Source: an uncultured virus (IMG/VR IMGVR_UViG_3300048598_000595) (taxonomy: Duplodnaviria; Heunggongvirae; Uroviricota; Caudoviricetes). From it: 64,000 nt of DNA. Positions 23,887 through 44,267 of this stretch are shown here, in pieces (positions within the stretch are counted from its first letter, which is position 1; the number at the start of each line of letters is the position of its first letter). The stretch lies in IMG/VR virus record IMGVR_UViG_3300048598_000595. One strand, 5' to 3'. Below the pieces are notes generated by a model, which was not told the origin of the DNA, searched no databases, and saw only the letters and a list, made by a program, of their open reading frames with translations. The translations under genes and the position numbers were made by a program.

Positions 23887-24272
23887 CTGCCTGAAATCAT
23901 ATTTTTTGTCACGTTTGCCAAGGATGTATCGCCTTTGTATCCACCTGTATTAAAAAAAGTAGACATGTATCCAAATCGCATTGCATCCCTGCGGCGCTTT
24001 TCTTCCACCGCATTTAATACTTCCGGACTTTGGTCCGTGGGCAATACAGGCGGTAAAATATTGGTGTCTTCTTCGGGAGTTTTTTTCTTTTTTGGTAAGA
24101 AGGAGTTTGTCGAATTCCCTCCTTGACCGTATTGACCATAATTTACTGAGCTGCTTGGACCCGATTGCTTTGATTGATTGGCATTATAACTATCTGATTT
24201 ACTGTAATTCGGACCGCTGTATCCACCGCCCCCTCCGCCACCTGAACCACCTCCACTTCCCATAATTATCAC
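23883..24272 (-). CDS. Gly-rich small virion-associated protein
   Basis: Between terL and portal; MGSGGGSGGG start. Confidence 0.55.
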   Translation of the reverse strand: MIIMGSGGGSGGGGGGGYSGPNYSKSDSYNANQSKQSGPSSSVNYGQYGQGGNSTNSFLPKKKKTPEEDTNILPPVLPTDQSPEVLNAVEEKRRRDAMRFGYMSTFFNTGGYKGDTSLANVTKNMISGR

Positions 24273-24284
24273 CCCATTTTTTTA

Positions 24285-25832
24285 TTAAGCTGCTAAGTCT
24301 AAAACGTCATAATCTGACTGAACTCCGCCAAACGTATTCAAAACATCATACTGGGAATTGGCAAAGTTTAATTTGCTGTTGTTTCTTGAATTATTTTTTG
24401 GTTGCACTGGGACAGCAAACGATATGGCCAACGCATCCGCCCGGTTGGGGGAGGGCAGTCCCTTTGCCCGAATGTCTTCCTTGGATTCGAGATAGATTTT
24501 CCCGGAATCTTTTCCGGTGGCTTTCACCCGGTATTCCGGTATCATTAATTCTTCCGCCAGCTGAGGATCATCCGGGATGGCCCCGCCCTCACGCAACCAA
24601 TCCTTCATCAGCTTCCACATTTCAGCCCGTTTATTCAAATATCCCGGATCACTCGAGGCCCCGCCAAACTCGACTAAAGTCCAATGCCGACCGGACTCTT
24701 TTCCAAAGCTGTATATTCCGGTACCAAAACCAAAATCGATGAATACGGCATCCGCTTGATATTGGTCCTCAAATCCCATTAAATAACCGGCAATAACTGC
24801 ATCATTATCATTGCGCGCATATTTTCCTAAAATCTTAAAGGCCAGCCCCTGCCGGAGCCCAATGACCGTTTCATCACCGCCGGTCCACGCCGGGTCGCAC
24901 GTAAGAATTTTTGCCGCGAAATTGTATTGCTCCAGACGAAGATGTCTTCCCCTGGCCGGGGTAATGATGGCCTCGGAAATGAATTGCAGGTCCGACGCGT
25001 TGGGAAATTCCCCGCGCACATGAGCTTTGACAAAATCGCTGTCTATGCCATAATCTTCAATCCATTGAGCAATTTGTGTTTTGTTGGATATTTTTACGGA
25101 CCGGCTGTCGATTTGGCGAATATGCCACCGGTGCCGCTGCTTCCTGAAACATTCCCGGAACCATCCGTAATTTCGAACCGGATTCCCGAAAGCTACAAAA
25201 ATAATTTGCGTATTGCTATCTGTAAGAGCTCCTTTAATGCCATCATCGTAAATGACATCATCAATCGCCGAGGCCTCATCGCAGAGGATCATGATTCTTT
25301 TACCATAATTGTGAAGCCCGGCAAATGCATCCGGCCTGGTTTTATTCCAAGGGATTGCATCAATGCGCCAGGTTTTTTCGTGCTTTGGTTCAACTGAATG
25401 AATTGATGTAGCCTCATATTTAAACCAATAACCGCATATACACAAACGGTGCCATTTTGCTAGTTCAGACCAAGTTTTTGTTTTAAGCTGGGTATCCGTT
25501 CCGGCGGTGACGACTCCCCGGGTGTCTTCTTGAGTGGACATCCCCCAGAGAATTAGCCAGGCGATCAGGGTTGATTTTCCGATCCCATTCCCGCTGGCCA
25601 CCGCCTCCTGGATAACCAAATTAAATGCTTCGTTGAAATTTACGCCGGCTTTTAACAAATCACCGATTTCAATTAAAATTTCTTTTTGCCACTGATCGGG
25701 CCCGCTAAAATCTTTTAATTCACCTTCACCCCATGAAAACGCATAGATGACAAATCCATATGGGTCAAAGGTAAATTTTGCGATGTCTTCAATCAGTTCC
25801 AATTCGGCTGGAGCTTTCTTGTTTGGTGGCAT
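24285..25832 (-). CDS. terL: Terminase large subunit
   Basis: Walker A SGNGIGKS, Walker B ILCDEAS, FGNP, nuclease DPAWTGGD...SPNRADALA. Confidence 0.93.
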   Translation of the reverse strand: MPPNKKAPAELELIEDIAKFTFDPYGFVIYAFSWGEGELKDFSGPDQWQKEILIEIGDLLKAGVNFNEAFNLVIQEAVASGNGIGKSTLIAWLILWGMSTQEDTRGVVTAGTDTQLKTKTWSELAKWHRLCICGYWFKYEATSIHSVEPKHEKTWRIDAIPWNKTRPDAFAGLHNYGKRIMILCDEASAIDDVIYDDGIKGALTDSNTQIIFVAFGNPVRNYGWFRECFRKQRHRWHIRQIDSRSVKISNKTQIAQWIEDYGIDSDFVKAHVRGEFPNASDLQFISEAIITPARGRHLRLEQYNFAAKILTCDPAWTGGDETVIGLRQGLAFKILGKYARNDNDAVIAGYLMGFEDQYQADAVFIDFGFGTGIYSFGKESGRHWTLVEFGGASSDPGYLNKRAEMWKLMKDWLREGGAIPDDPQLAEELMIPEYRVKATGKDSGKIYLESKEDIRAKGLPSPNRADALAISFAVPVQPKNNSRNNSKLNFANSQYDVLNTFGGVQSDYDVLDLAA

Positions 25833-26487
25833 TTTGCCATCTCTCCCTGGCTGCTGCCATACTTTCGGAAAGTGAGATGTTCATATTGTTATTGATATTA
25901 ATATCTTTTCCGCTTTTGTATTGGTCCATATGAGCTTCCATCAATCTGATTAATAGGGCGTCTGAGTATTCCCGAATATGTCCCACTATATCGCCTTGAT
26001 AAAAAACTGGTTTCAATGTCCCGGTAACCGCTCTTCGGAATGCTTCCGCTTCCAAAGTAGTACCAATCTGATTTTGAACTTCTTTAAACTGTTGGGCGTA
26101 TTTCTCATCTTTCAACCATTCATAATGTTTTCCACGGTCAATATCTAACATTTTTGCAGCTTTGGTAATATTGAGGTCAGCATTTTGTGACAGCGTTAGC
26201 AAAAACATTTGTTTTTCCCGGTCTTCCAGTGCTGTCTGATATACCTTGATTTTGGCCGCATACTCCGGGTCTGTTTTCATCCACTCATAATGAGTATCCC
26301 GGCTGATACCCGCCTCAGCCACTGCCAAGGAAATATTACCGTCAGCCTCAAGGAAAAGAGTCAGAAATTTTTCTTTGGAATCTTTGACTCTCTGGGCGAT
26401 GGCCGCCTGGGTCTCGGTTTTTGGTTTTTTTACGACTTCTTTTTTGGCTGGCCGGCGTCGCTTATTTTTCCAAGCCATAACTGACAC
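25789..26487 (-). CDS. terS: Terminase small subunit with tandem HTH repeats
   Basis: Two GISRDTHYEW/DIDRGKHYEW HTHs; EAEAFRRAV..PVFYQG..REYSDALL; directly upstream of terL. Confidence 0.8.
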   Translation of the reverse strand: MSVMAWKNKRRRPAKKEVVKKPKTETQAAIAQRVKDSKEKFLTLFLEADGNISLAVAEAGISRDTHYEWMKTDPEYAAKIKVYQTALEDREKQMFLLTLSQNADLNITKAAKMLDIDRGKHYEWLKDEKYAQQFKEVQNQIGTTLEAEAFRRAVTGTLKPVFYQGDIVGHIREYSDALLIRLMEAHMDQYKSGKDININNNMNISLSESMAAARERWQNATKQESSSRIGTD

Positions 26488-27057
26488 CTAGCTTTCATTG
26501 GTATGTTCAAACCAGGTTAGCATCAAATCCGCTTTGGTGTTATCCGCATCCGGAGTAAATCGGATGATATAATCCTCATTTTGTTTTAAAATCAATTTAC
26601 ACTTTTCCGAGCTGCCGGCAGCTGCCATGTATTCAGCCCAAATTAATGTTCCGGCGTCAGCTGCTCCTCCGCTGCCCAGAGTCGGGTCTACCTTTAATGT
26701 CAATCCGCTTGCAGTATTAGAATTGCGATTGCTGTTATATGCGGTTACTGCAGTACCTGCTGCCGGAGTTGTCCCGTAAGTGGGATTTTCATATATCTCC
26801 CATAAACCGGCCGCTGAACAAGAATAAGCAAAAATCATGTGAGCCCATTTGGTGGTATCCGGTGTTATGATTTTCCAATACTTCGGGCCAGCGGTATCAA
26901 CGTCCGTATCATAGCTGTGAGCAATAAAATGATCGCCGGCGTTTATTTTATGCTGGATAAAATCCACTGAAATTAACGATGCCGTTGAATGATCCGCCAT
27001 CGGAATGACTCGGGTATTTTCATTGGCGCTTGATTGTACATAGATTGGTTCCGGCAT
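26488..27057 (-). CDS. Hypothetical beta-rich protein, first gene of the late operon
   Basis: Strong RBS, abuts terS. Confidence 0.6.
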   Translation of the reverse strand: MPEPIYVQSSANENTRVIPMADHSTASLISVDFIQHKINAGDHFIAHSYDTDVDTAGPKYWKIITPDTTKWAHMIFAYSCSAAGLWEIYENPTYGTTPAAGTAVTAYNSNRNSNTASGLTLKVDPTLGSGGAADAGTLIWAEYMAAAGSSEKCKLILKQNEDYIIRFTPDADNTKADLMLTWFEHTNES

Positions 27058-27120
27058 GTGATCATCTCCTTGAGGTTATATAAAACAAAAAAACTGCCTG
27101 AAAGACAGTTTTAATAATGG

Positions 27121-27154
27121 GCGAAATCCGAAATTATACAAATTCGGATTTCGC
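27121..27154. repeat. 34-bp palindromic site (12-bp perfect arms), candidate recombinase or regulator site
   Basis: gcgaaatccgaa-attatacaaa-ttcggatttcgc. Confidence 0.7.
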
Positions 27155-27253
27155 TAAATTCGGTTAAATTTTGCCGTTATTGCTGATTACTGATTAAATA
27201 ATCGGGTTATATGCTGTAATTGCTTTTTAAAAAGTCCATTCCTGATGTATCCA

Positions 27254-27454
27254 TTATTTTGCCTCCTGAGCTGCTTTTACGATTGCGTTTTTGCAATCAT
27301 CAAGCCACACCTTGACCTCTTTGTTTTTGGCTAATTCTTCATTGGTTACTTCCAACTTAAAATCAAATTCGCAATGGCTAATCATTACAGCCAAAATCGG
27401 ATCAATTGTAACTTGATTCTTTTCGAGAAAATTTACGAAATCCTTACCGTTCAT
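27254..27454 (-). CDS. Hypothetical protein
   Basis: ORF in operon orientation. Confidence 0.45.
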   Translation of the reverse strand: MNGKDFVNFLEKNQVTIDPILAVMISHCEFDFKLEVTNEELAKNKEVKVWLDDCKNAIVKAAQEAK

Positions 27455-27492
27455 CTTTTCAATACCCCACCCATCATATTTTCCAAATTATC

Positions 27493-28104
27493 TTATTCTT
27501 CGCCACCCGTCCGTTTCCCTCTCTTGGTCCCGATCCGAAGCGTCCGGACCGCCTGGTCAAAAATGTCCCGGTTTAATCCAATATACCTGGCGGTGATGGC
27601 CTCCGAAGTATGACCGAACCATTCCCGCAGGAACGCCAGGGCGAAGACCGGACCTTTTTGATTGCTCCTTCGATATTGGTCATAAAACCAGTATCCGAAT
27701 GTTTTCCGCATGGAATGGGTACCAATCGTATCCTGGATTCCGGCCTCCTTAGCAACTTCTTTGATAACTTGATAAACCCGGGTAGTGGTCAGCGGTTTAT
27801 TCTTGCCTTCCCGGCTGGGGAATAATACTTCCCAATCCGGCTTACCCTTGATGTATTCTTTTAATGATTGCTTTAGCTTTGGATGTATCAGTAATTCTTT
27901 GACTTTTCCGGTTTTCTGCTCTTTGAGTTTAATATGGGTCTGGTCCCGGACATCACCCACCCGGAGCTGGAGGATATCGCCACATCGGAGGCCGGCATAG
28001 ATTCCAACCAACCAAATCAAATACCACATTTGACCCAGTTTTTTTAACAGGTCCTCGATGGCGTCTATCTGCTCCGGCTCCCGTATGGGCTGTACAAAAT
28101 TCAT
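27493..28104 (-). CDS. Small tyrosine recombinase (catalytic domain only)
   Basis: GLR, K, HSMRKT, FGH and YIG catalytic residues all present; MNFVQPIR start typical of Firmicutes phage recombinases upstream of terminase. Confidence 0.9.
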   Translation of the reverse strand: MNFVQPIREPEQIDAIEDLLKKLGQMWYLIWLVGIYAGLRCGDILQLRVGDVRDQTHIKLKEQKTGKVKELLIHPKLKQSLKEYIKGKPDWEVLFPSREGKNKPLTTTRVYQVIKEVAKEAGIQDTIGTHSMRKTFGYWFYDQYRRSNQKGPVFALAFLREWFGHTSEAITARYIGLNRDIFDQAVRTLRIGTKRGKRTGGEE

Positions 28105-28463
28105 CCCGAATCCCCCGTTTTGTAATAGGTTTTAACCTTTTCCATTTCCGTTTGTAACCGGTCCATAATGTTTTCGATAATATCATCGCTTAAATCGTAT
28201 TGTATCGCAGACACCAAAGCATCAGCCAGTTTTAACATTTCTTTTTTGTTTGTAATTACAACGATGGGTTTATTTTTTCGAAAAGCCAAACAGTGATTTG
28301 ATTTTATAACACCATCGCTGTTCGTAAAAAAGATTTTAGCTTCAAATTTTCGGCAATTGGTACAGTACAATTCACCCGCGATGATATGATCCAGATATTC
28401 CGGGAACGGAATCCGGTGTCGTGCCGCTGCCGCTTTGAGAGGGAGAAGCGATTTATCAATCAT
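28101..28463 (-). CDS. Hypothetical Cys-containing protein
   Basis: Coupled ORF with CTNC. Confidence 0.5.
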   Translation of the reverse strand: MIDKSLLPLKAAAARHRIPFPEYLDHIIAGELYCTNCRKFEAKIFFTNSDGVIKSNHCLAFRKNKPIVVITNKKEMLKLADALVSAIQYDLSDDIIENIMDRLQTEMEKVKTYYKTGDSG

Positions 28464-28660
28464 TGTTTCACCTCATTTTTTATTCCGGAGCCGGCGCCGG
28501 GGTCATCGTCAATCCGTTTAGCATATTGATTACAATCGCAGTAAATCATGAATTCATCAAACTTTTTTAGTCGTTGGTTACACTTTGGGCATCGATCTTT
28601 TAGTCGTATAATCATATGGCCGTGGTATTCGTACTGATCCGGATTTTTTGGATTAGCCAT
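28460..28660 (-). CDS. Small zinc-ribbon protein
   Basis: CPKC...CDC. Confidence 0.5.
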   Translation of the reverse strand: MANPKNPDQYEYHGHMIIRLKDRCPKCNQRLKKFDEFMIYCDCNQYAKRIDDDPGAGSGIKNEVKQ

Positions 28661-28946
28661 TTTTTCGATTCCAAATCATGGCGGCCAGTACCCCAACATC
28701 GATAAAATCCATGGATGCAGGAGTCAAATTTTTTCTAAGTAACACCTCTAAACTTCGCGTGGAAACTTCATCCGGATTGTCCCAGCCGGTGTACCCTTCC
28801 CGTAATTTTGACAGGACCCTTTCCCGTAGCTGCTCGGCAAACTGATTAATCAGGTAATTCAGTGCCATTTCCTCGGATGATTCCCCAAAGGCTTGGTCTT
28901 TGAATTGTTGAGTTGTGACTTTCATTAACCCACCTTCTCCAGCCAA
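28653..28946 (-). CDS. Phage hypothetical protein
   Basis: Coupled ORF; GYTGWD...IDVGVLAAMIW. Confidence 0.55.
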   Translation of the reverse strand: MAGEGGLMKVTTQQFKDQAFGESSEEMALNYLINQFAEQLRERVLSKLREGYTGWDNPDEVSTRSLEVLLRKNLTPASMDFIDVGVLAAMIWNRKNG

Positions 28947-29281
28947 ATATAATCCGTAATTGACTTAATACCGGTACCGTCCGGATGGGGATCGTGCACC
29001 ATTTCGTAATTATGCCATACTACTGAATGCAACCGGTTCGGATATCTAGGAGATTTACCAGATACAATGTAATATTCAACATGCATCGGCGGATAAGTTC
29101 CCCAGTATAAGGCATAACCCGATGATTTTGCCCAGTCAATAAATCGTCCCCACCATTGGTCCACTGAATACGAACAAAAATTCGGGACGGTGGCGGGGTC
29201 CAACTCAAGTATGGAACAAACGCAAGCGCGGAAACAATCGCCGTTTTCAGGGTCAAGAATGGATTGTTTGATGTATTTCAT
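28925..29281 (-). CDS. Small papain/C39-like peptidase-fold protein
   Basis: Q...GDCFRAC, HSVV, VHDP give a Cys-His-Asp arrangement. Confidence 0.55.
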   Translation of the reverse strand: MKYIKQSILDPENGDCFRACVCSILELDPATVPNFCSYSVDQWWGRFIDWAKSSGYALYWGTYPPMHVEYYIVSGKSPRYPNRLHSVVWHNYEMVHDPHPDGTGIKSITDYIWLEKVG

Positions 29282-29531
29282 CGGTTAAATTCCCTTTCAT
29301 AGTATTCGGTGACTTTTTCGACGCACCGATCACCGCCCTGGTCGGTCGAATACTTGCACTGATGATAAACCGGGCAAACTTCACACGGACTAGTTATGGT
29401 TTCGAAAACCGCTTCACCAACCCGGTCATCATCAAAACGAAACACAGCCATGATGAAAACCTCCTTATGTTTGGTTGTATATCTCAAAACATGTCCAGTC
29501 TTTCGCCATTTCTGCAAGTTCCCGGACAATA

Positions 29532-30068
29532 TCATCCGGAGTTTTGTTGGTAAATCCCGGTTGACATTGCAGCAATCCAATGGCAGCAATTAAAAGATTT
29601 CCATCCGGCGAATTGGTATTGATTTTCATGGCAGCCGGCATGACCTTTAATCCAAATCCACTCAATTTTCAGTCCATCGCTTAATCCATGAAGCTTGTCC
29701 CATAAATACTGATTGTTTGCGGGGCAATGATTGTTTAAATCGTCTAGTTCACCTATACCATTCATCCCATCAACTAAGTACGTGCTATCGGAATAAACTT
29801 TGTAGTGATGCTGAATTGATATTCTTGGATTGTTCCGGATGCACTGTAACGCTTCAACTGCTGCAGTCAATTCCATTTCGTTGATAGTTGTGACATTATA
29901 ACCGCCGGAACCCTCGTAATGATGAGTCATTTTGCCTAATTGATTATCAGCCCGGGCTTTTCTAATTTGAATTAAGTAGGCCCAACCGCCCGGGCCGTGT
30001 CCATTGTTTCGGTATATGCAGGATCCGTCAGTCCAGATTGCAACGATTCGTTTTTTATTGCAGCCCAT
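29532..30068 (-). CDS. rnhA: Ribonuclease HI-like protein with aberrant C-terminus
   Basis: WTDGSC, GPGGW, TTINEMELTA, YSDSTY, WIKGHAG; last helix replaced; likely start ATG at 30068. Confidence 0.75.
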   Translation of the reverse strand: MGCNKKRIVAIWTDGSCIYRNNGHGPGGWAYLIQIRKARADNQLGKMTHHYEGSGGYNVTTINEMELTAAVEALQCIRNNPRISIQHHYKVYSDSTYLVDGMNGIGELDDLNNHCPANNQYLWDKLHGLSDGLKIEWIWIKGHAGCHENQYQFAGWKSFNCCHWIAAMSTGIYQQNSG

Positions 30069-30226
30069 CGATTTTGTTTGAATATTCGTGATAGCTATCC
30101 TCCACAAACTCAGACCAATCAGACCAATTGTACTCTAGCAAAGGAAAATCTAAGCCTGTTTCGCAATGTCGCTTACTTCCGCGCTCATCATTAAAGTCAA
30201 AAATGGCCATATTTTAAAAACCTCCT

Positions 30227-30496
30227 TTACCTTTCGTGATATGCTTTTAATAGCCTATATTTAGGTACTCTGCCGTTAAATAAGTAATTAAACTTGTTTG
30301 TTTGCTTTTTAAGGCTTTCGCCCTTTGGACCATTGTTTGCTGGAAGTCCATGTTTTTTTCTCCATGCAAGGATAGGTCCGGCGGTAAAGTATCCGCGATT
30401 TAATGCGATTTGCAAATCACTGTATCCTTTGTTGTACAGTTTCATTCTTGTTTGATGCTCTTCTTTTGAAATTGATGGCCGCCCTTTCAAAATCAA
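30227..30496 (-). CDS. HTH DNA-binding protein
   Basis: RMKLYNKGYSDLQIA...ILAWRKKHGLPAN. Confidence 0.55.
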   Translation of the reverse strand: MILKGRPSISKEEHQTRMKLYNKGYSDLQIALNRGYFTAGPILAWRKKHGLPANNGPKGESLKKQTNKFNYLFNGRVPKYRLLKAYHER

Positions 30497-30507
30497 GCCT
30501 CCCTTAA

Positions 30508-30539
30508 TCGTTTTATCAACATTGACAAGTGTTTCAAAA
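30508..30539 (+). repeat. Left copy of a 32-bp inverted repeat flanking the Tad1 cassette
   Basis: tcgttttatcaacattgacaagtgtttcaaaa; 31/32 identical to the reverse complement of 31389-31420. Confidence 0.95.
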
Positions 30540-30562
30540 TCAATCCAACAGTTATTTGATGA

Positions 30563-31024
30563 TTATACCTGGCTTGTCCCTTCAACTTGGCGATTTTCCC
30601 GTTCCTGTTTCCGTTTCATGCTCCATAAAAGCGCTTCATCCAGCTTGGTGATCATCATGCTAGTTTCCCGACAAGGAACCCGCTGATTAAATACTTGCAG
30701 TACATCCCGGGCAAACTCGATAAGGTCATCAATCTGGCATCCATTGACTCCGATTTCTTTGATGGGACCGCCCTGGCCGATGAAAGTTACGCTATCATCT
30801 TGAACATATACGAAGGGCTTCCATTCTCCATTTGGTATCGGATAGGCTCTTTGGCCTTCTGGTCTTGCCATTCTGCCGACTATATCAAAGTACATGCAGT
30901 CACCGTCTTGGATTTCGATTTCTTGACTTTCAGCAGGTTCGAGGCGATATTCTTTATCACCGCAACAAAAATCGATGGTCATTGAATCATTCAATTGATT
31001 TTTAGCTAAAACTTTTATGCTCAT
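30563..31024 (-). CDS. tad1: Tad1-like cyclic-nucleotide sponge (anti-Thoeris/CBASS) with extra N-terminal domain
   Basis: QGGPIKEIGVNG..DDLIE...F...PCRETSMMITKLDEALLW..R..R..RQVEGT matches the Tad1 consensus as I recall it. Confidence 0.75.
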   Translation of the reverse strand: MSIKVLAKNQLNDSMTIDFCCGDKEYRLEPAESQEIEIQDGDCMYFDIVGRMARPEGQRAYPIPNGEWKPFVYVQDDSVTFIGQGGPIKEIGVNGCQIDDLIEFARDVLQVFNQRVPCRETSMMITKLDEALLWSMKRKQERENRQVEGTSQV

Positions 31025-31039
31025 AAACCTAACACCCCT

Positions 31040-31297
31040 TTAAATTCTATTGCTTATTTGTCTTGATTCCATTTCGATTTGTTGAGCGGCTGTTTCAATT
31101 AAAGAAACTAAATTCTCAACACTAGAAGTGTCTACGCTACTAATTTTTTCCCCGGGGATTGTGTTGCATGGCGATGGGGAAAATAGCTTTCCATTAATTG
31201 ACCGAATGTTGGATAGTGCTTCCCCAAGAGACGACCAAGATTTCTCTAGTCGATCTCTTAATATGGATTCCGGTTGAGTTGCTGGTTGGTTTCCCAT
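31040..31297 (-). CDS. Small helical hypothetical protein in the IR-flanked cassette
   Basis: RBS ggagg; two predicted amphipathic helices. Confidence 0.55.
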   Translation of the reverse strand: MGNQPATQPESILRDRLEKSWSSLGEALSNIRSINGKLFSPSPCNTIPGEKISSVDTSSVENLVSLIETAAQQIEMESRQISNRI

Positions 31298-31388
31298 AGA
31301 TTTTATTTATCCTCCATTTTAGTAAATTTGTTAATAATTAGGAAATCGTTGCTTTTTGTCGGTACTGTCGGATCGTGAATGATCAAAT

Positions 31389-31420
31389 TTTTGAAACACT
31401 TGTCAATATTGATAAAACGA
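31389..31420 (-). repeat. Right copy of the 32-bp inverted repeat
   Basis: ttttgaaacacttgtcaatattgataaaacga. Confidence 0.95.
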
Positions 31421-31597
31421 CTTGATTTTTTTATCGAATTATCTATATCTTAGATTCTATTAAATTCATTGATTATTTATAAACCTTGATAAATCAATGG
31501 TTCTAAAACATCCTATTTTTTAATTTAATGTACTCCATTTTATAGATAATTTATAAATGAGTAATAACCATGTTTTAAACCGTTTTACTATTTTCTA

Positions 31598-32911
31598 TTA
31601 ATAGGTCTTAGTCTTGGTTGCACCCGCTAGTTTAAAAGTTGATTTTTCAGGAAAGAAATCGAATAGGACATCTTTGTCCTTGATTCCATAGCGATTTTTA
31701 GCTATATTATCCCTGATTACCCATTCCGGGTCGTCGTTACGCCGGTAGAGAAATTGAATTGAACTTGCTGCTTGCTCTAAATTCCCGGTTTCATTCAAAT
31801 CCGAAAATACCGGTTTGGGGTCTTTCCGTTTGTAAATATCACGGTTAAGTTGACATATTAGATAAATTGGAATTCTTAATTCACGGCCAATTTTTTTAAG
31901 TACTCGTAATGAACCATTCAATTCAGCCCTGGAATTACCATGGATTTCATATTCAGGCTTCATCAATTGAAAAAAATCGATGATTATCAATTTGATTCCA
32001 TATTTTTTTTTCAATTTACGGCCGCGAATTAAAATATCCGATGCCTTGGTTTCCGTTGAGTCGTCAATAATAATTGGATAATTGCTTAGTTTTGAAGCTT
32101 TTTGAGTTAAATGATCAATATCTTCCAGTTTCAGAAGATTTACATTTCGGAATGCCATGGAATCCATCTGGGCTTCGAGAGCAAGAAATTTTCCTTGCAG
32201 CTGCTCCTTGGACATTTCAAGTGAAGCAAAATATACTGGACCGAAATTGATGGCGACAGTCCTGGCAATATTGATAACCTTGGTTGTCTTTCCGGTACCC
32301 GGTGGAGCTGCCAAAATATTTATGGTGTCCGGGTCCAGTCCACCAAGAATATAATCCAAAGCGTCATACCCTGTTCGTAATCCAGTGATTGATTTTTGAG
32401 CCCGTATTTTAGCCTCCAAATCATCCACAAAATCCAATATACCGTCACCAATCATCTGTATTTTTTCTTGTCTGGAATTTTTATCTAGTCGTTCAGAGTC
32501 TTCAAGGATACCTTGCGAAACTACGTCGTTGGGATCTGCTCCGTTCTGTAACTGCTGTATTCGCTGCTGATATTGAAATATGCTTTGCCTAGATAAGCTA
32601 TGTTTTTTAACAATACCAATGTAATCCGGGACTCGTTTGATGTCTGGATAGTATCTCATCATCTCGGCCCAGACCGCATGAGTTAACCCAGACGAATCCT
32701 TTTTGTTTTGGGGTATGCTGTCAAAAACCCCCACTGGATCAATTGGTTGACGATCCTCTGAGCATTTTTTAAACGAATCCCAAAAAAGCTTGTTTTGGGG
32801 TCTGACAAAATCATCTGTCAAAACTTGATCTTGGATATCATCAAAGAGTTCCAAACCGTAATTCATAACAGAACTAATCAAATAATTTTCAGCTTCCAGA
32901 TTCCCTTGCAT
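31598..32911 (-). CDS. dnaB: Replicative DnaB-like helicase
   Basis: AAPPGTGKT, FASLEMS, IIIDFFQLM, QLNR, SDLNETGNLEQ, AKNRYG. Confidence 0.92.
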   Translation of the reverse strand: MQGNLEAENYLISSVMNYGLELFDDIQDQVLTDDFVRPQNKLFWDSFKKCSEDRQPIDPVGVFDSIPQNKKDSSGLTHAVWAEMMRYYPDIKRVPDYIGIVKKHSLSRQSIFQYQQRIQQLQNGADPNDVVSQGILEDSERLDKNSRQEKIQMIGDGILDFVDDLEAKIRAQKSITGLRTGYDALDYILGGLDPDTINILAAPPGTGKTTKVINIARTVAINFGPVYFASLEMSKEQLQGKFLALEAQMDSMAFRNVNLLKLEDIDHLTQKASKLSNYPIIIDDSTETKASDILIRGRKLKKKYGIKLIIIDFFQLMKPEYEIHGNSRAELNGSLRVLKKIGRELRIPIYLICQLNRDIYKRKDPKPVFSDLNETGNLEQAASSIQFLYRRNDDPEWVIRDNIAKNRYGIKDKDVLFDFFPEKSTFKLAGATKTKTY

Positions 32912-33692
32912 CTCCGCGACACCTCGCTAAATATGACTCAAGCTCTATATCCACATCTGTTATGATTGTTTCTCCATCTGGAGGCTCCGGGGGTAAACCA
33001 TCTAAGTAATCCAAAAATGGTTTGTTTGGTCCTATAAATGTACTGGGATTCTTTATGTATTGCAGTTCGGTCCCTTCATGAAGTGATGTTAAATATTTTT
33101 TAGCCGCAGTGATCATCTGTTCAGGAGTATAGCCGTCCTTTATCCGGGTATTCCAACATTTAAAAACTTTTATCTTTTCAATTTTTTTTGGATATCCTTT
33201 CCAAAAAAAATCAAATTCAGGGGTATAATTTAGTTCTTTATGGTTATAGTTCAATAGCTTTAGTTCGGGTGCATGTGGTGCAGTACCCTCCTGCACAGTG
33301 TGCACCACCTCGGGTGCATGTGGTGCAGTACCCTCCTGCACAGTGTGCACCACCTCTTGAGTGGAAGATTCATCAAAAGTTACTTTGGGTGGAATGTATC
33401 GCAATATATATAAATTGCTTAAATTCTTGGAACCTTCCCGGCGATAGACCTTTCGTATGTACTCCCGGGTTTCTAGTTCTTTTAAACAGTACCGGACCTT
33501 ACGTTCACTTATACCGGACAGTTTTGCCAAAGTATCAATGGATGGCCAACATTTTTTATCCGCGCTATTTGCAAACCGGCTAAGATAAACGTATAATAAC
33601 CGAGCTTCTTTGCTTAGTTCCAAATCGTCCAGCACTGCATTTTCAACGATGGTATAATGCCATCCCTCTTGCTGAATTTGGCATTCAGCCAT
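32889..33692 (-). CDS. Replication initiator (N-terminal winged HTH, internal iterons)
   Basis: LSKEARLLY..L...CWPSIDTLA; C-terminal FDFFWKGYPKK...YIKNPSTF; directly upstream of dnaB. Confidence 0.85.
   Translation of the reverse strand: MAECQIQQEGWHYTIVENAVLDDLELSKEARLLYVYLSRFANSADKKCWPSIDTLAKLSGISERKVRYCLKELETREYIRKVYRREGSKNLSNLYILRYIPPKVTFDESSTQEVVHTVQEGTAPHAPEVVHTVQEGTAPHAPELKLLNYNHKELNYTPEFDFFWKGYPKKIEKIKVFKCWNTRIKDGYTPEQMITAAKKYLTSLHEGTELQYIKNPSTFIGPNKPFLDYLDGLPPEPPDGETIITDVDIELESYLARCRGDARESGS
33265..33356. repeat. Two 45-bp direct repeats (probable origin iterons) next to an AT-rich tract
   Basis: tcgggtgcatgtggtgcagtaccctcctgcacagtgtgcaccacc occurs twice. Confidence 0.75.
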
Positions 33693-33790
33693 GTTAGTCC
33701 ACTCCTTGAAATAGATTTAATTATTTGGATGTACGTATTAAATACACGGAGGACCGCGAACCATTGAAATCACCAATCTTTCATAATTGA

Positions 33791-34000
33791 TTAACCGTCA
33801 CCGGAACCGTAACCGGAACCGTCACCGTCACCGTAACCGGAACCGGAACCGTCACCGTCACCGGAACCGTAACCGGAACCGTCACCGTCACCGTAACCGG
33901 AACCGGAACCGTCACCGTCACCGGAACCGTAACCGGAACCGTCACCGTCACCGTCACCGGAACCGGAACCGTAACCGGAAATTTTCTCTAAGCTCTCCAT
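33791..34000 (-). CDS. Gly-X (S/D/Y) repeat micro-protein
   Basis: MESLEKISGYGSGSGDGDG...; start overlaps the end of the upstream gene. Confidence 0.6.
   Translation of the reverse strand: MESLEKISGYGSGSGDGDGDGSGYGSGDGDGSGSGYGDGDGSGYGSGDGDGSGSGYGDGDGSGYGSGDG
33794..33980. repeat. Hexamer array ccgNNa with 60-bp higher-order period
   Basis: Units ccgtca/ccggaa/ccgtaa; consecutive 60-nt lines nearly identical. Confidence 0.95.
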
Positions 34001-34281
34001 GCCGTCACCTTCTCGATGGATGCTTTAGCTGCATCCGTAACCGATAGAATTTCAATTGCTTGTAACAAAGTTACTTCCGGTACGGCGACAGGAAATTTAC
34101 AACTTTCCGGTCGAGAGGTTCCTTCAACAGCTAATTGGGATAATGACGCTGCCCCGGACCAGTACCAGAGCCTCCTGGCGTTAGTCAGTACGACCTCTTG
34201 ACCATCACGGGATTTTAATTCCCCCGCAAAAACCCCCGCTGAATAAGTCCTCACAATTACATACTGTTCATTTTGTTCCAC
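33988..34281 (-). CDS. DUF6948-like small phage protein (likely GTG start at 34281)
   Basis: YVIVRTYSAGVFAG...LTNARRLWYWSGAASLSQLA. Confidence 0.7.
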   Translation of the reverse strand: MEQNEQYVIVRTYSAGVFAGELKSRDGQEVVLTNARRLWYWSGAASLSQLAVEGTSRPESCKFPVAVPEVTLLQAIEILSVTDAAKASIEKVTAWRA

Positions 34282-34334
34282 TGTTTTATCCCCTTTTGTT
34301 ATTTTATTAAAAGGGTTGTCCCCTTTAATAATCT

Positions 34335-35345
34335 TTAAAATAAACTCATTTGGCCAACGGACTTCCAATCAACTTCTTTATTAACCGGTATTTCTAAAGG
34401 TACCGGAGCTGATTGTGTAACCGTAAAAACTTTTTCATCAATCGTCCATCCTAATTTTTGCCCCGGCCAGGGCCTGACTAAAATTTCTTTGATATAATCA
34501 ACCTCACCAATGGTGACGGAACACCCCAATTCGATTCCCCGTCCGGTCTGGCGCAACCGATCAGAATTAATTTTTTTGGCTATCCAATAATCAAAAATTG
34601 GATCAATTGGTTCATACTCCAGCGATATGGAGCCATTATCATAAATTATCCGGCATTTCGGATGATTTTGTGTTGGCGCTGGCTCCGGTACCGGACCGGA
34701 TCGATTCGGCGAGCTGATCGGCTCACTGGGTCCCGCCGGCGGATGCGTCCGGAGATCAATTTTTTCACACCAGCTTTTTAGTTGCTTATCCCGCTTTTCA
34801 GGGTCTTTTTCGTCCGGGTCAAGTCCTTGGCCCTGGGCGATACCAAATACATAATCTGCTTCCTGGTGGGTGAACATGCCACCCAACCGGCCGCCATCTC
34901 CGGTGGCCGTCCAGCGCTCCCGGGGTAAATGGCGATATAACCAAAACAAAAAATTTTCGGATTTCGTTTCAAAATCGATATAAGCGGTTTGATCGTCATA
35001 CCGTATCCGGCAATGTTTCGAAGTTTCAAATTTACCGGTTATAAATTCTTCCGGATCCCGGCCATTTTCAATCAGGCTGATTTTTGAATAATGATCATAC
35101 GCCAGGGTGAAAATTTGGCTAAAATATACCGTGTCCATGGTCCAACATTTTTCATCATCAAAATATGCCCGATTTGTTTTCGGTACCAGCTGCTTTAGCT
35201 GATCATAAAAATCCGGTCGATAATCGCCCTCGATCCGAAATCGGGTATCAGCTGAGTTAATTGTTATCCGACATTCTGCCATGTTGATCACCCCCGCCGG
35301 TGATTTTTTATTTTGAGCCAAATAAGGATAAATGGCACGGTCCAC
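34335..35345 (-). CDS. Protein with three HARP-like repeats and C-terminal clamp-binding motif
   Basis: Repeat starts CRITIN, CRIRYDD, CRIIYDN; ends QMSLF. Confidence 0.5.
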   Translation of the reverse strand: MDRAIYPYLAQNKKSPAGVINMAECRITINSADTRFRIEGDYRPDFYDQLKQLVPKTNRAYFDDEKCWTMDTVYFSQIFTLAYDHYSKISLIENGRDPEEFITGKFETSKHCRIRYDDQTAYIDFETKSENFLFWLYRHLPRERWTATGDGGRLGGMFTHQEADYVFGIAQGQGLDPDEKDPEKRDKQLKSWCEKIDLRTHPPAGPSEPISSPNRSGPVPEPAPTQNHPKCRIIYDNGSISLEYEPIDPIFDYWIAKKINSDRLRQTGRGIELGCSVTIGEVDYIKEILVRPWPGQKLGWTIDEKVFTVTQSAPVPLEIPVNKEVDWKSVGQMSLF

Positions 35346-35677
35346 CAGCCCATAAAACCGGCCAGGTCATCAAAGTACCAGTCTCCCGAAATCTTCCGGG
35401 AGTCCACGCCGTATTGACGGATAAGATCCGGATGATTTTCGTTATAATAATCAAACTTCAAACCGGCTTTTTCAAGCTGATGTTTAGCCAGGCATAACAA
35501 ACAAGGATGCTTATTTAAGCAAGTCCGGCAAGTATTGAGTATTAAATAATGACCCTGCTTTTTAAACCACTTGATCCAAAACCGGGCTCCGATCCGGAAG
35601 GGTCCCGGCTCCGGCCAGCGGTTTCTTACAATCGTTCCGTCATAGTCAAATATGAGAACATATTTACCGTTTAACAT
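35288..35677 (-). CDS. Capless HAD-superfamily phosphatase (BT0820-like)
   Basis: DYDGTI, LNTCR, RKISGDWYFDD. Confidence 0.8.
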   Translation of the reverse strand: MLNGKYVLIFDYDGTIVRNRWPEPGPFRIGARFWIKWFKKQGHYLILNTCRTCLNKHPCLLCLAKHQLEKAGLKFDYYNENHPDLIRQYGVDSRKISGDWYFDDLAGFMGWWTVPFILIWLKIKNHRRG

Positions 35678-36554
35678 TAAACCCCCAGGTCTAAATTGAT
35701 TTGAGTTGGTGCTTTAATTTGGACGGCGGCCACTGAATTAAACCAAAGGACTTCAATCCGAGTTTTTCCAAGTTCCGTTTGATTTTTCTTGTATTCCGAA
35801 TGCCATCCCGAAAGCTCTTGAGTATACAATACATTTTCATAACTGGATATCATCACCGGACCCGGATGCTCCTGGAGGGACCGCAATAATTTTAAATGCT
35901 CTGCATTTGTCATTTCATTTTTATATAGCCTCCGGCTCCGAGTTTCCAATGGATAAGGCGGATCAGCATAGATTAAAACTTCAGGATACCGGTAATTTGA
36001 AATCAACTTTAGCGCGGGTAAATTTTCAATCTGAAGTTGTTTCAATCGTTCGGCAGCCTTGATAATGATTTCCGGTAACCGATCCCAGCGTTTTGGTGGA
36101 GCGTTAACCCCACCTTTTTTTGTTTTTGAATATTATGGGCCCAGGAACTTCGATCAGCAGTTTTCGCGCCAAATGACATCCAACATCGGATAAGCATTCT
36201 TCGGGCATCTTCCAAAGGTTCACCTGTCCGGATAAAATATTCAGTATTATCGGCGGTAATAGATTCCGGTAAAATTTCCTCGTATTCCGACCGATCCCAG
36301 GGAGTGAATTCGATCAGCCTGGCCAGTTCGTCGGGATGGTCGCGGATCACTTTAAAAAGATTGACAATATTTTTATCGATATCGTTGACGGTTTCAAGTG
36401 GTGATGGGTCTTTATAAAAAATATCCGCTAACGAACCACAGTATGGGTTCAAATATGTATGGTGTTTAATTTGGGCAATATACCCGCTTAACCATAGCCC
36501 AAGTCGCCATTTTGACCCCGGGTAACGGAGGATAGGGTTATCTATAACTGGCAT
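35677..36554 (-). CDS. Dam-like (D12 class) N6-adenine methyltransferase split across two frames at A_AAA_AAG (36114-36120)
   Basis: LRYPGSKW, PYCGS, ETVNDID in the first frame; WDRLPE..AAERLK..IYADPPY in the -1 frame. Confidence 0.8.
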
Positions 36555-37420
36555 GGCTTCGGAAACTCCATATATTTCTTACCATCCAGATAATTTCCTG
36601 ACAGCTCAGTTCCACAATTGACCATGGGTTGACCGTCGGTATACGTAATCGTTTCCTTATAGTACAGTTCCCCTTTTTCCCCTGGACACCATTTGCCCCA
36701 TTGCTTGAAAAAGAAAGGTGTTCCAGATTCCTTGCATTGATCCCGAATTGACCGGACCAAATCCGGATGGGTTGGCCGGGCTCTGTTCCCGGATTCACCA
36801 CCGACGATTACCCAATCAAGTTTTTTATCACTTCTTCCTTGGAGTGGTCTAATAACGCCATGATCGCCGGTCAAAGAATCGATTTCAACTTCACTTGTTT
36901 GAATATGCCTTAAATTAACCGGTCCAAGCATTGGTTCAATACTCACAAACCGGATCGCCGATGGTACTTGTAACAAAATAGGAATCCGTTTATCAGCCAT
37001 TTGCTGATTCTCGGTGGTTACCCCCAACCAAACATTGGGCCAACCCGAACCCCAATCATCAGGAAGCCGGCTCAAAATATTTTCCGGCCATTTTGAGAGT
37101 ATCAAATATACATAATGTGGGGTTCTGCGAATAATATCCCAGGCGGCCGGGCGCCAAGGATCAGCTTGTACATTAAAAAAGTCACCCCAGCTCAAAGTGA
37201 AAATCTTATCCCCGGGTTTGATATTTTTGGATTTCAAGGGAAAATAAAACGTATCATTTTTCGATTGAATCACGGTGACGGGATCTTGACCGTATCGTTT
37301 CTTATCCCGATACATATAGCAGTTTAAGCAACCAAAATACTGACTATCCGGATTTTTGGGGCATCCTTGAGCCCAATTCCAAGTGTGGTCTGTCCAGGAT
37401 ATCGTTGTATTTTCAGCCAT
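36542..37420 (-). CDS. DUF5131 (phage Gp37/Gp68) family protein
   Basis: ISWTDHTWN..GC...GCLNCY, NVWLGVTTENQ, SIEPMLG, DWVIVGGESG, FFFKQWG. Confidence 0.9.
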   Translation of the reverse strand: MAENTTISWTDHTWNWAQGCPKNPDSQYFGCLNCYMYRDKKRYGQDPVTVIQSKNDTFYFPLKSKNIKPGDKIFTLSWGDFFNVQADPWRPAAWDIIRRTPHYVYLILSKWPENILSRLPDDWGSGWPNVWLGVTTENQQMADKRIPILLQVPSAIRFVSIEPMLGPVNLRHIQTSEVEIDSLTGDHGVIRPLQGRSDKKLDWVIVGGESGNRARPTHPDLVRSIRDQCKESGTPFFFKQWGKWCPGEKGELYYKETITYTDGQPMVNCGTELSGNYLDGKKYMEFPKPCQL

Positions 37421-38057
37421 TCACTTTTCCCCCGTTCACTGCTTTTAAAATCCAAAGTAAATCAATGGGGTGGACTTCGATGGCCCCGGCCTCCCGGGCC
37501 CGTTCCTGGGCTCTGGGGGTGGTAAGATCATAATGGGGATGTTCCTGTTTATCCTGGTACCATTCCCGCTTCAATCCGAGTTTACCGGCAAACTCATGCA
37601 GGTGATCTTCATTTTTGGTGGATATCATATGACCCACCGAGTCAAATATAATTTGTTCAAAATTCCACAGTCCTTGGTGACCTTTCCATGGAATCGGTTT
37701 GCGAAATCTCACCGGGTTTTTCATCAGCAGCCCGATCCGGCCGGGGGAATAATCTCCAAAGTGGATTTCGGGTACCCCGGGATTATATCCATCAAGCGAA
37801 ATCACATCGTAAATTGTAACCATCCCGATGATGGCCCCCAAGGTGAATTCCTTGATATTCGCCGCTTCCAAATCCGATTTAATATACGGATTTTCCTGAC
37901 ATAAATTCAAAGCCCATTTGGGTGTTTTCGACGAAGTATGAATAAAAATGGGGCCCCGGTAATTTTTATATTTGATTTGGCCGGACCGGGTTTCGATTTT
38001 CTTAGCGCCGATGGCTAATAAGCTGGCGTATGGTTCGTAAAATGATAATGCTTTCAT
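37413..38057 (-). CDS. ASCH domain fused to a DUF4031-like domain
   Basis: ALSFYEPYASLLAIGAKKIETR...KGHQGLW, then LHEFAGKLGLKREWYQ..HYDLT..A..AGA. Confidence 0.8.
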   Translation of the reverse strand: MKALSFYEPYASLLAIGAKKIETRSGQIKYKNYRGPIFIHTSSKTPKWALNLCQENPYIKSDLEAANIKEFTLGAIIGMVTIYDVISLDGYNPGVPEIHFGDYSPGRIGLLMKNPVRFRKPIPWKGHQGLWNFEQIIFDSVGHMISTKNEDHLHEFAGKLGLKREWYQDKQEHPHYDLTTPRAQERAREAGAIEVHPIDLLWILKAVNGGKVNG

Positions 38058-38872
38058 TTCGCAAACCAGGCTTTAAATAGTGTTACTATCCACCGCCAAA
38101 TAGAAAGTTGAAATTCGTCATATTCCCCTAAATCACATGTTTTGCATGGTTTTGCAGTAATCTCTTTCGCAGAATGCTTACAAATAGCACAGGTTCTTTT
38201 TTTCATGGTTATCCTCCTTATGATTCAAAATAAATAAATTTCCCAAGTTCTCCATCATTTACACTTACTTCCACAATAGTTATATCTAAACGGCTTGCGC
38301 CGGTTATTTTCAAATTGGCGGCCAGGGCCTTCAGCTATCGCAAGCAGCCCCCACCGGTCCCTCCCCCTAGTGCGATATTCCGTATGGCGCTTTTAAGATA
38401 ATTTTCGCTCGACCTTCGCAAACTATCTATAAACACCACCCGCCAACTTGCGGCCGGTTTCCCCATCCGGCCGAATCTATACATCAACCTGAGTTGCATT
38501 TTTTTGAAGGGACAATCTGATTTTAAAACCCGGGGGTCAGACCCCCTGCCGGGCCCCCGGGTGATTCGTTGAAATTCAGGGATGGTTACTCCCCGGAATC
38601 AGGATGATCCGGAATGTTGGCCGGGGTTGTCGCGGCTCCCGGTTCGGTCAGCTCCACCGGAGCCTCTTGCGTGGTTGGTTCGTTTCCAAAATCAGTCATT
38701 GTTTTACCTCCTAAAATTTGTTTTTTGTAGGGATACGCTTGGGGACTAGTTTGTCATTTTGGTAATCACCTTCCTTATAATTCAACTGGCGGGATTTTAG
38801 TTTGGCCTGAAAAAATACATCATATTTTTGGAGAAACATGATCGCGCGTTACCCCGCCATTACAATCCCAAT

Positions 38873-39310
38873 CTATTTTTTGACCAATCCCCGGGTATGA
38901 TCACCCGCAGAATGTTCTTTGGAATATTTTGAAGCAATATAAGCTTTACAATCAATACAAAACTTCAAACCTCGATGCTGTATGTCTGGAGGAACTGGCG
39001 ATAAACTTGGTTTTGATGGCTCTGATTTTTTCGATTCGGAAACAATCGGCGTCGACAAAACAGATACCGGGGTGGATATATTTGTTTTTGATTTCTCATG
39101 ATCATCCGGTTTGGACATTTCATCAATTTCATCAAATAGCTTTACATCGTAAGTACTTTGTATCAATGAATCATTTGGATCAATCGACGATAGAGAAGCG
39201 ATAATGCTTTTATATCCACCAATGATTACTTGTAATTGATCAATGATCAGGTCCGTTTGAGGTGCTTCATTTTGGATTTTTTTCAAATCTTCTTCATTAA
39301 TTTTCAACAA
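38873..39310 (-). CDS. Hypothetical protein with C-terminal Cys/His finger
   Basis: CIDC...H...H. Confidence 0.45.
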   Translation of the reverse strand: MLKINEEDLKKIQNEAPQTDLIIDQLQVIIGGYKSIIASLSSIDPNDSLIQSTYDVKLFDEIDEMSKPDDHEKSKTNISTPVSVLSTPIVSESKKSEPSKPSLSPVPPDIQHRGLKFCIDCKAYIASKYSKEHSAGDHTRGLVKK

Positions 39311-39420
39311 GCGATAATACCGTCGTAAAAGGGGCGTCGTCCCTGGTGAATCACAAATCGTAAAAGCGCCGTTTGATTAAATTGAATTTTTTTACTCATT
39401 CTAAACCTACTTTCTTTTAG

Positions 39421-39487
39421 CCGCGAGGGCCGGATTCGAACCGGCGGTCTGGGGCTTTTGTATTCCCCAAATCCTCCACGCCCCGCA
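39421..39487 (-). ncRNA. tRNA-like element lacking a D-stem
   Basis: 7-bp acceptor-like stem, canonical T-arm gccgg-TTCGAAT-ccggc, 5-bp stem with 10-nt loop, no CCA. Confidence 0.45.
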
Positions 39488-39499
39488 ATGTATTAAATT

Positions 39500-39787
39500 T
39501 TAGATTTCATCATCCGGATATCGAATCATTTCAAAATCGTACAGCAAATGATCGGTGAATTGTTGCCAGCGGGACCGATAGCCATCCAGATATTCGATAT
39601 CATAAACAAGCTGTTTCATCCCCCAGAGCGCGGAGGTATAAAAACTTTTTTGCAAATCAAAATGGTGGCGCTGGCGTTTGTTGATGCTTTGTAACAGTAT
39701 CCCCTTAAACTCCATACATTTCTTTTGAAATGACGCTTCCAGCGCTTCGTAGCTCACCTGCTTCGGCATGTCAACCCCTCTTTTCAA
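39500..39787 (-). CDS. Hypothetical protein
   Basis: ORF with RBS in the early operon. Confidence 0.5.
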   Translation of the reverse strand: MKRGVDMPKQVSYEALEASFQKKCMEFKGILLQSINKRQRHHFDLQKSFYTSALWGMKQLVYDIEYLDGYRSRWQQFTDHLLYDFEMIRYPDDEI

Positions 39788-40130
39788 TCCAAAAATATTC
39801 GTCGCCCATGATATTTCCGCCGGCCGGATCGGGATTGTGGACGAGTACCCCGCAGGTATGTATTACCGAATGACGGATGTTCTTAGAATTGTAACCTTGG
39901 GGAAAATAGTACTGGACATGCATTGGCCGTGCGGTACCCCAAAAGAGTTGATAACCGTTTTGCTTTAGAAATGATATGACTATATCAAGCCATTTATCAT
40001 TGGCGAAATCAATCTCGGGTATCATGTCAAAGGGCAAGTCCATAACGGATGCAATACAAGCCCGAAAACTATTCCCTGGGTCCACTTTGGTATTGGTAAT
40101 ATCCTGATATACTGGAGTCAAATATTTCAC
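39771..40130 (-). CDS. Paralog of 28925-29281 with the putative catalytic Cys replaced by Ser
   Basis: GNSFRACIASVMDL...HSVI...VHNP. Confidence 0.6.
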   Translation of the reverse strand: MKYLTPVYQDITNTKVDPGNSFRACIASVMDLPFDMIPEIDFANDKWLDIVISFLKQNGYQLFWGTARPMHVQYYFPQGYNSKNIRHSVIHTCGVLVHNPDPAGGNIMGDEYFWIEKRG

Positions 40131-40378
40131 CCCCGAAACTTAATCACACAAGCCGTACATAATTTTTTAATGGTTTTACCGGCCGAAATCTTTGCCGGTA
40201 CCGGGACTTCCCAACAAGCTTGACCACAATTTGGACAATGGACTTCTTTTCCACCTGCGAATTTTTCACGGATGTTTTTTTGTAGAGGCATACATATAAG
40301 ACGGGTTCCATCGTCTACGTCTAGATCTTTGAAAACAAAACCGGTTTCTTTGTCGAACCCCATCTTTGCATCACTCAT
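40127..40378 (-). CDS. Zinc-finger protein
   Basis: CMP...CPNCGQACW...CTAC. Confidence 0.6.
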   Translation of the reverse strand: MSDAKMGFDKETGFVFKDLDVDDGTRLICMPLQKNIREKFAGGKEVHCPNCGQACWEVPVPAKISAGKTIKKLCTACVIKFRG

Positions 40379-40504
40379 GCGCCGACCCCCTTTTAAATTT
40401 TATGGTTCCTACTCTGGACATCGCCCTCGTGTTTGCCTCCCCCGACAAACACGGATTTCCGAACAAGGGATGTCCAGGGTGGGAGTCATAAAACTCCCGA
40501 TAGT

Positions 40505-40786: not shown

Positions 40787-40944
40787 TTGGTTTGAACCAC
40801 CGGCATCGGCGCCGGGATAACCCAGCGAAAACTTTGGGTGAACAATTTACTTTGCATACTTTTTGGTCCCGGCTGATAAAGGCGCACTGGGGGCAATGGC
40901 CGGGGTGAAATTTCTTCGAGTTTAAGGAAGTCAACATTAACTCT

Positions 40945-41458: not shown

Positions 41459-41490
41459 TCCTTCACATTACGTTCGTTACCGTTCGGAAG

Positions 41491-44263: not shown

Positions 44264-44267
44264 AATA

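Follow-up and report, generated by a model that had tools for sequence, protein, structure and literature searches.

Inverted 32-bp repeats around a Tad1-type sponge operon in an uncultured temperate phage: candidate paired regulatory sites

A 64,000-nucleotide stretch of DNA from an uncultured virus of the Caudoviricetes (IMG/VR record IMGVR_UViG_3300048598_000595), here called the window, encodes a 153-amino-acid (aa) protein with a Tad1-family sponge core. The gene and a small open reading frame (ORF), p85, are bracketed by two near-identical 32-bp inverted repeats. Each repeat holds a 16-bp dyad. The right dyad contains the −35 element of a promoter-like site, and the left repeat lies at the ribosome site of p89, a gene for a small helix-turn-helix (HTH) protein. 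An anti-defence operon that regulates itself through paired sites, in the manner of anti-CRISPR-associated (Aca) proteins, is the best reading of this arrangement. It is put forward tentatively, at a probability somewhat below even.

Repeat pair and the operon it frames

The principal features of the locus are:
30508–30539: left 32-bp inverted repeat, between the Tad1-like gene (stop codon 23 nt away) and the HTH gene p89 (GGGAGG 3 nt away)
31389–31420: right 32-bp inverted repeat, in the AT-rich gap that follows dnaB; the 85-aa ORF begins 92 nt downstream
31379–31406, minus strand: promoter-like site TTGACA-16-GATCAT
31040–31297, minus strand: p85, an 85-aa ORF without functional assignment
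30563–31024, minus strand: 153-aa fusion protein, with residues 1–51 at 30872–31024 and the Tad1 core (residues 52–153) at 30563–30871
30227–30490, minus strand: p89, 87 aa from a TTG at 30490 that is properly spaced from GGGAGG; homeodomain-like HTH

The repeat arms are 32 nt each, agree at 31 of 32 positions (97% complementary) and are spaced by 849 nt. The unit is 913 bp long with both repeats included, and the two sites are 881 bp apart. A repeat search of the window bore out these inverted copies, which a preliminary description of the DNA had reported, and ranked them as its top inverted pair. Eight pairs of at least 24 nt were found; this is the sole one above 88%, and the remaining seven are 74–88% complementary. 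Repeat edges are sharp, and the 10 bases outside each end do not match between the arms. The same description had the repeats framing exactly two genes, and these are the ORFs of 85 aa (31297..31040) and 153 aa (31024..30563), both on the minus strand like all genes of the region.

The imperfect palindrome described earlier is also present in each arm, as the dyad TTATCAAyATTGACAA at 30513–30528 (left) and 31400–31415 (right). The sole difference between the arms is at the dyad centre. Without mismatch the dyad occurs in the window at the two arms only. With up to two mismatches there are five matches in the window against 0.18 expected, and five were reached in 0 of 100 shuffles. The two extra matches at 32262 and 59519 are inside coding sequence.

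On the coding strand the right repeat reads TCGTTTTATCAATATTGACAAGTGTTTCAAAA. The −35 of the promoter-like site (31406..31379), a perfect TTGACA, is contained in the right dyad, and the −10 lies inside the bracketed segment. The site agrees with the consensus at 10 of 12 positions. It lies in a 300-bp AT-rich gap and is the best promoter-like site in 29800–32200. Among minus-strand sites of 24000–43900 it ranks second, behind the early promoter of the lysogeny switch (41778). The CI/Cro operators at that switch are of the TTACCGTTCGG type and unlike the dyad, so a separate binding protein would be needed.

The candidate regulator is p89, a gene that the preliminary description did not mention. 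From the stop of the Tad1-like gene at 30563 to the start of p89 at 30490, both on one strand, no terminator-like site intervenes. A HMMER scan of 1.8 billion representatives found 539 proteins at E ≤ 1e-3 that share the first ~50 residues of p89, and in these relatives the module often occurs in 2–7 tandem copies. All 16 relatives scanned against Pfam have HTH_23 plus HTH_28, Terminase_5 or HTH_7, and the first Atlas match for p89 is an HTH_7 cluster. The single-sequence structure model of p89 is poor (pLDDT, predicted local distance difference test, 58). Judged by its relatives, p89 is a small homeodomain-like HTH DNA-binding protein.

In the proposed mechanism, both repeats would be copies of one 32-bp cis-regulatory unit, in which a 16-bp dyad operator is surrounded by promoter elements of the sigma-A type. 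The operon that they frame would be an accessory one, complete in itself, within the early region of a podophage-like temperate prophage. Of the two copies, the right one would give the −35 of a promoter driving p85 and the Tad1-type sponge, and transcription would continue into p89, with the left copy directly before the p89 ribosome site. Both dyads would be bound by the p89 protein, probably in dimeric form. Binding would repress the promoter and switch the operon off after an early burst of sponge, as Aca repressors do on anti-CRISPR operons. An outward promoter inside the unit (TTGAAA, 16 nt, TG-A-TAAAAC), through which the left copy might drive p89 and genes beyond, is held loosely; its −10 is without the final T.

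Operators for a transcription factor had been named in the preliminary description as what the repeats might prove to be instead of a switch. That alternative fits better than flipping, with the right copy on a −35 and the left copy at the ribosome site of an HTH gene, and in the self-regulated form given here it is favoured without reaching an even chance.

Several points weigh against it. Promoter-like sites overall number 60 against 51.5 ± 7.7 in shuffles, which is no enrichment and leaves the promoter call weak; 31379..31406 is a consensus match and as a promoter would be a lead, not proof. A palindromic operator would explain 16 bp but leaves the remainder of the 32 identical bp, with asymmetric flanks and sharp edges, unexplained. 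The left copy has no usable inward −10. On its own, p89 matches no curated family in Pfam or NCBIfam. At other Tad1 loci, no adjacent HTH gene was found among 32 neighbouring ORFs at 10 loci, apart from one weak HTH_23 match. A scan of 10 viral Tad1 loci for any inverted pair of at least 18 nt found bracketing repeats at none of them. The neighbour with the weak HTH_23 match is probably a small terminase.

The 153-aa fusion protein

The 153-aa product is a fusion of a small N-terminal module (residues 1–51) and a Tad1-family sponge core (residues 52–153). The name Tad1-like given in the preliminary description thus holds for residues 52–153, on PDB, Foldseek and tblastn matches, and not for residues 1–51, which are an unrelated module.

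Residues 84–153 match CmTad1 (PDB 8kbb) at E 2.3e-13 and CbTad1 (7uav) at E 5e-5, and six of the seven PDB sequences matched by the protein are Tad1. Searches with tblastn returned 61 phage records, all over residues 84–153, including the annotated Tad1 of Bacillus phages SPG24 and SBSphiJ7. A word-based search with the whole protein gave 249 homologues at E ≤ 1e-5. Among the matches listed, PF24729 is present in 120 of 120 homologues; the closest are 72–83% identical, mostly stand-alone proteins of 101–106 aa, and cover residues ~52–153. PF24729, the Acb2/Tad1 hairpin domain, scores 17.4 bits against a gathering cut-off of 27 in hmmscan, and the precomputed annotation of the collection lists PF24729.3 for this protein.

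In an AlphaFold2 model made with a 50-sequence alignment, residues 61–140 have pLDDT 82–98 and are predicted to take the Tad1 fold, in which a long helical hairpin follows beta strands. Tad1 structures fill all of the 14 best-listed Foldseek rows in the PDB, with probability 1.00, 70–83 aligned columns and target-normalised TM-scores of 0.45–0.48. The N-terminal 51 residues are modelled as a low-confidence fold (pLDDT 48–69).

Residues 1–51 have a counterpart with 66% identity in a Bacillota metagenome-assembled genome, a free-standing ORF of 58 aa (L025 3998–4174). The Tad1 core has other N-terminal partners in related phages: a 70-residue domain in L005 (3794–4309) and a zinc ribbon in L006 (3884–4303). 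The sponge thus appears from sequence comparison to be built modularly, with one core joined to differing N-termini and module 1–51 also present as a free gene.

The only relative found for p85 is a 92-aa ORF adjoining the Tad1-like gene of phage L005 (53% identity over 36 aa). That homologue lies downstream of the sponge gene, opposite to the gene order of p85 here.

Neighbouring features and searches for other forms of the unit

Further features around the unit are:
31421–31597: AT-rich non-coding tract of 177 bp between dnaB and the right repeat, GC 0.198, with imperfect repeats inside
31454–31483, minus strand: weaker promoter-like site within the AT-rich tract (31483..31454), 9 of 12 consensus positions
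31598–32911, minus strand: DnaB-type replicative helicase, the upstream neighbour and the end of the replication module
27493–28104, minus strand: 203-aa tyrosine recombinase, catalytic domain only (PF00589, E 2e-18)

The AT-rich tract and the small tyrosine recombinase had both been noted before and are as described. Of the further TTGAT..ATCAA dyads reported in the tract, TTGATAAATCAA is present at 31486–31497. No second site of the kind is there, and shuffling yields one or more in 18 of 100 cases. Its frequency is not above chance, and it was dropped as an accessory site.

The preliminary description had proposed an invertible or mobile anti-defence switch, and had asked for a search of related phages for the same repeat with other cargo or for an empty or flipped cassette. 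None was found in the collections searched. The 23-nt repeat core has no exact match in 185,579 species genomes and 241 million metagenome records, in scans that diverged copies would escape. The 19-nt core has one match in a viral contig (L004), inside a 488-aa ORF with unrelated flanks. No further copy occurs in the window at up to nine mismatches, and at the same threshold the repeat is at 0 of 13 viral and 0 of 4 genome loci of Tad1 relatives. Neither recombinase gene has a copy or half copy of the repeat near it. Dyad matches in G002 (a capsid gene), L004 (the 488-aa ORF) and the window at 32262 (dnaB) all encode I-N-I-D/A with unrelated flanks and were rejected as chance.

Positions 30200–31700 of the window recur in a second record, G001, an IMG/VR provirus of 47.5 kb that is 100% identical and collinear over this stretch, in the same orientation. 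A second orientation was not seen in the window or in G001, a very small sample that makes this weak. Three DNA metagenome runs contain 5–10% of the words, and no RNA run was among those listed; the contigs, one per run and 227–343 nt long, cover 30688–31030, 29829–30070 and 32126–32300, all clear of the repeats. Among the ORFs scanned there was no small serine invertase of the Hin type, and the 203-aa recombinase scores 23.6 bits against the tyrosine-type DNA invertase family, where the cut-off is 221 bits. An invertible or mobile switch thus gained no support: one orientation in G001, no repeat with other cargo, no empty site and no bracketing repeats elsewhere.

The empty comparative result arises partly because this phage is without close kin on record. 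No close relatives of DnaB, p89 or p85 were found in viral contigs, nor of DnaB in metagenome contigs. Among cultured phages p89 and p85 have no match, and the DnaB matches listed are ~29–31% identical, all below 60%.

The Tad1 locus in related phages

The Tad1 core is 76–78% identical in L005/G002 and in L006, where no repeats accompany it and its place is in the head module, with the portal gene on one side and the scaffold gene on the other. L006 is equivalent to a Sporomusa ovata prophage. Compared with this phage, L005/G002 and L006 have a terminase 55% identical, portals 38–45% and capsids 33–35%. DNA similarity to these relatives spans only 30576–30867, the core, and not the whole repeat-bounded unit. 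In the course of phage evolution the sponge gene has therefore moved, and what was exchanged is the core-coding segment and not the repeat-bounded unit. Fusion of the Tad1 core to a separate module, together with its differing location in relatives, illustrates how sponge genes are reshuffled.

The DnaB of G002, the nearest phage, shares 51% identity with the one here, and 45 bp beyond its gene comes an unrelated gene for 227 aa. This dnaB junction was considered as a clean empty site and rejected, since the downstream genes differ.

Alternative explanations

A relic of a transposon-type insertion is the next reading, and an unlikely one. The unit would be a 913-bp non-autonomous element with 32-bp terminal inverted repeats that brought p85 and the sponge into the dnaB–p89 spacer, duplicated a 5-bp target (CTTRA) and supplied its own promoter from the terminal repeat. 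In favour are the full-length identity of the repeats and their sharp edges, and the edges and the flank match are just as compatible with an old insertion as with operators. The flanks are cttaa and cttga, as the preliminary description had it. They match at four of five positions, expected for 2.3% of random pentamer pairs drawn from the region (P ~0.023), and as a target-site duplication they are imperfect. The Tad1 core is at a different genome position in related phages, and the HTH class of p89 is also used by transposase DNA-binding domains. Excision would bring the AT-rich tract and the weaker promoter-like site within it (31483..31454) right up to the ribosome site of p89. However, there is no transposase inside or beside the unit, and the repeat has no other copy in the window. 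The 23-nt core has zero exact matches in the species genomes and metagenome records, and the 19-nt form one chance coding match in viral contigs. DNA homology with relatives is confined to 30576–30867, and the cassette has no GC contrast with its neighbours.

More doubtful still is the 913-bp unit as an active element, inverted or moved by a phage or host recombinase and letting the phage vary or exchange its sponge. If the unit does flip or move, this would be a new way for phages to vary their anti-immunity content. No invertible or transposable sponge cassette appeared among the papers listed on Tad1 and on invertons, which is not proof of absence. Those listed for invertons do not contain the term 'anti-defense'.

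Inversion in its specific form is improbable. Here the 203-aa tyrosine recombinase or a host enzyme would flip the 850-bp segment and alter its relation to early-operon transcription. A near-perfect pair frames a discrete segment, and the arms have internal dyad symmetry, as recombinase core sites do. The small tyrosine recombinase, presumably of FimB/FimE size, is apparently intact and encoded 2.4 kb away, and a large serine recombinase (569 aa) is also present at 42272–43981. Set against this are the single orientation in the window and G001, the invertase score of 23.6 against 221 bits, the lack of a repeat-like site near either recombinase gene and the 0 of 10 Tad1 loci with bracketing repeats. 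Strand exchange would be expected at the dyad centre, and the sole arm difference falls just there. With the −10 in the segment and the −35 in the repeat, the left copy would, after a flip, recreate the same promoter ahead of the same genes. The promoter would travel with the genes, so flipping would not turn them off. These points against an on/off switch are arguments, not a test.

A long-range RNA duplex has an equally slight probability. Read-through transcripts from dnaB would pair the two copies into a 32-bp stem, an RNase III substrate or a stabilising clamp, and the stem would separate processing of the sponge mRNA from the rest of the operon. The arm difference is a G.U wobble in the sense (minus-strand) RNA and a C.A mismatch in the antisense, but a wobble would be expected in one case out of two. 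Folding of 30495–31435 (minus) pairs the ends over 34 consecutive pairs in both the minimum-free-energy and the centroid structure, with z = −4.6 against 20 shuffles, but any perfect repeat folds into such a stem, so that the fold adds no independent evidence. The stretch from dnaB to the cassette has no terminator-like site. If the right-repeat promoter is the main start, however, the right arm is not transcribed. Covariation is lacking for want of relatives, and no Rfam family was found, the one match (E 0.65) being far below threshold.

Other explanations, including neutral duplication, take up the remainder.

Genome context

The window is phage DNA, and relatives point to Bacillota hosts, including Sporomusa ovata. 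The element encodes a T7-type portal, a GP7-type capsid protein, Bbp16, a replication initiator and DnaB. A CI-like HTH gene adjoins the 569-aa serine recombinase at 41.9–44.0 kb. The lysogeny switch at 41456–41812 has repeated TTACCGTTCGG-type sites between Cro-like and CI-like genes, and two face-to-face promoter-like sites of 11/12 each (41778 minus, 41798 plus).

The replication-initiator gene (32889–33692) contains a perfect 45-bp tandem duplication at 33265–33354 that encodes VVHTVQEGTAPHAPE twice and has internal dyads. We take this duplication to be a possible set of origin iterons, by analogy with lambda O. The stretch 33764–34003, just upstream of the initiator gene, is densely repetitive with periods of 6, 12 and 18 bp (ACCGTCACCGGAACCGTA...); it encodes a minus-strand ORF of 69 aa rich in Gly, Ser, Asp and Tyr (33791–34000).

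The late region encodes a 2322-aa polyvalent protein at 5426–12394 with LPD22 and ART-PolyVal (ADP-ribosyltransferase) domains. A dual-specificity phosphatase-like ORF (4891–5505) adjoins the polyvalent gene and has a 45%-identical relative near the L009 Tad1 gene. At the end of the late operon, a 485-aa ORF (3426–4883) contains four to five copies of a 132-bp repeat at 3442–4198 and is probably a repetitive receptor-binding or lysis-associated protein.

A second phage-like region, 44000–64000, lies beside the first prophage and encodes a SU10-type capsid, a tail-collar protein and a 1687-aa ORF. Two stretches of it resemble the lysis end of the first phage, 2065–2139 versus 47105–47179 (80%) and 3030–3097 versus 56524–56591 (72%).

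Comparison with known systems

With its 32-bp terminal repeats, a near-duplicated 5-bp flank, a size below 1 kb and a place in a phage intergenic spacer, the unit resembles small non-autonomous mobile elements that end in inverted repeats, such as elements like miniature inverted-repeat transposable elements (MITEs) and the MPME of mycobacteriophages. The unit here differs in being single-copy, with no transposase and no repeat relative in the collections searched.

Invertons of the FimB/FimE, RecV and Hin/Gin types share with this locus internally symmetric inverted repeats around a short segment and recombinase genes in the same element. The dyad half-site is, we presume, akin to the Hin hix half-site. 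Unlike in invertons, the segment here is a whole operon with a −10 inside it and not just a promoter or variable gene end, the recombinase is neither adjacent nor an invertase-family member by score, and a single orientation is seen.

Known Tad1 sponges, such as CmTad1 (8kbb) and the Clostridium botulinum prophage Tad1 (7uav), resemble the 153-aa protein in core sequence and predicted fold. The 153-aa protein differs in its extra N-terminal 51 residues, and its closest listed relatives are mostly stand-alone proteins of 101–106 aa. Tad1 sponges are oligomers that bind glycocyclic ADP-ribose (gcADPR) and/or cyclic oligonucleotides and block Thoeris or the cyclic-oligonucleotide-based antiphage signalling system (CBASS), an activity that the 153-aa protein may share.

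What is understood of how phages regulate counter-defence genes comes mainly from anti-CRISPRs (Acr). Aca2 recognises promoter inverted repeats as a dimer (PMC6765145). Aca systems place a DNA motif over the promoter (PMC6765145, PMC13551039) and have additional ones in the spaces between the genes of an operon, and a role for Aca proteins in regulating anti-defence genes of other kinds has been predicted (PMC13551039). Compared with the acr-aca operons, the cargo here is a Thoeris/CBASS-type sponge and not an Acr, p89 matches no curated family, and its binding to the dyad is a proposal. The sites are also 881 bp apart, inverted and identical over 32 bp, and are not two nearby dyads in one promoter. 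In common with those operons (PMC6765145, PMC13551039), the locus has an anti-defence gene and, next in the same direction, a small HTH gene; one dyad overlaps the −35 of the putative promoter, and the other copy precedes the ribosome site of the regulator, between the genes. If the operator reading is true, the locus would be compact enough for ready testing, with a 913-bp unit, two sites and a single regulator, and Aca-style control would extend from anti-CRISPRs to signal sponges.

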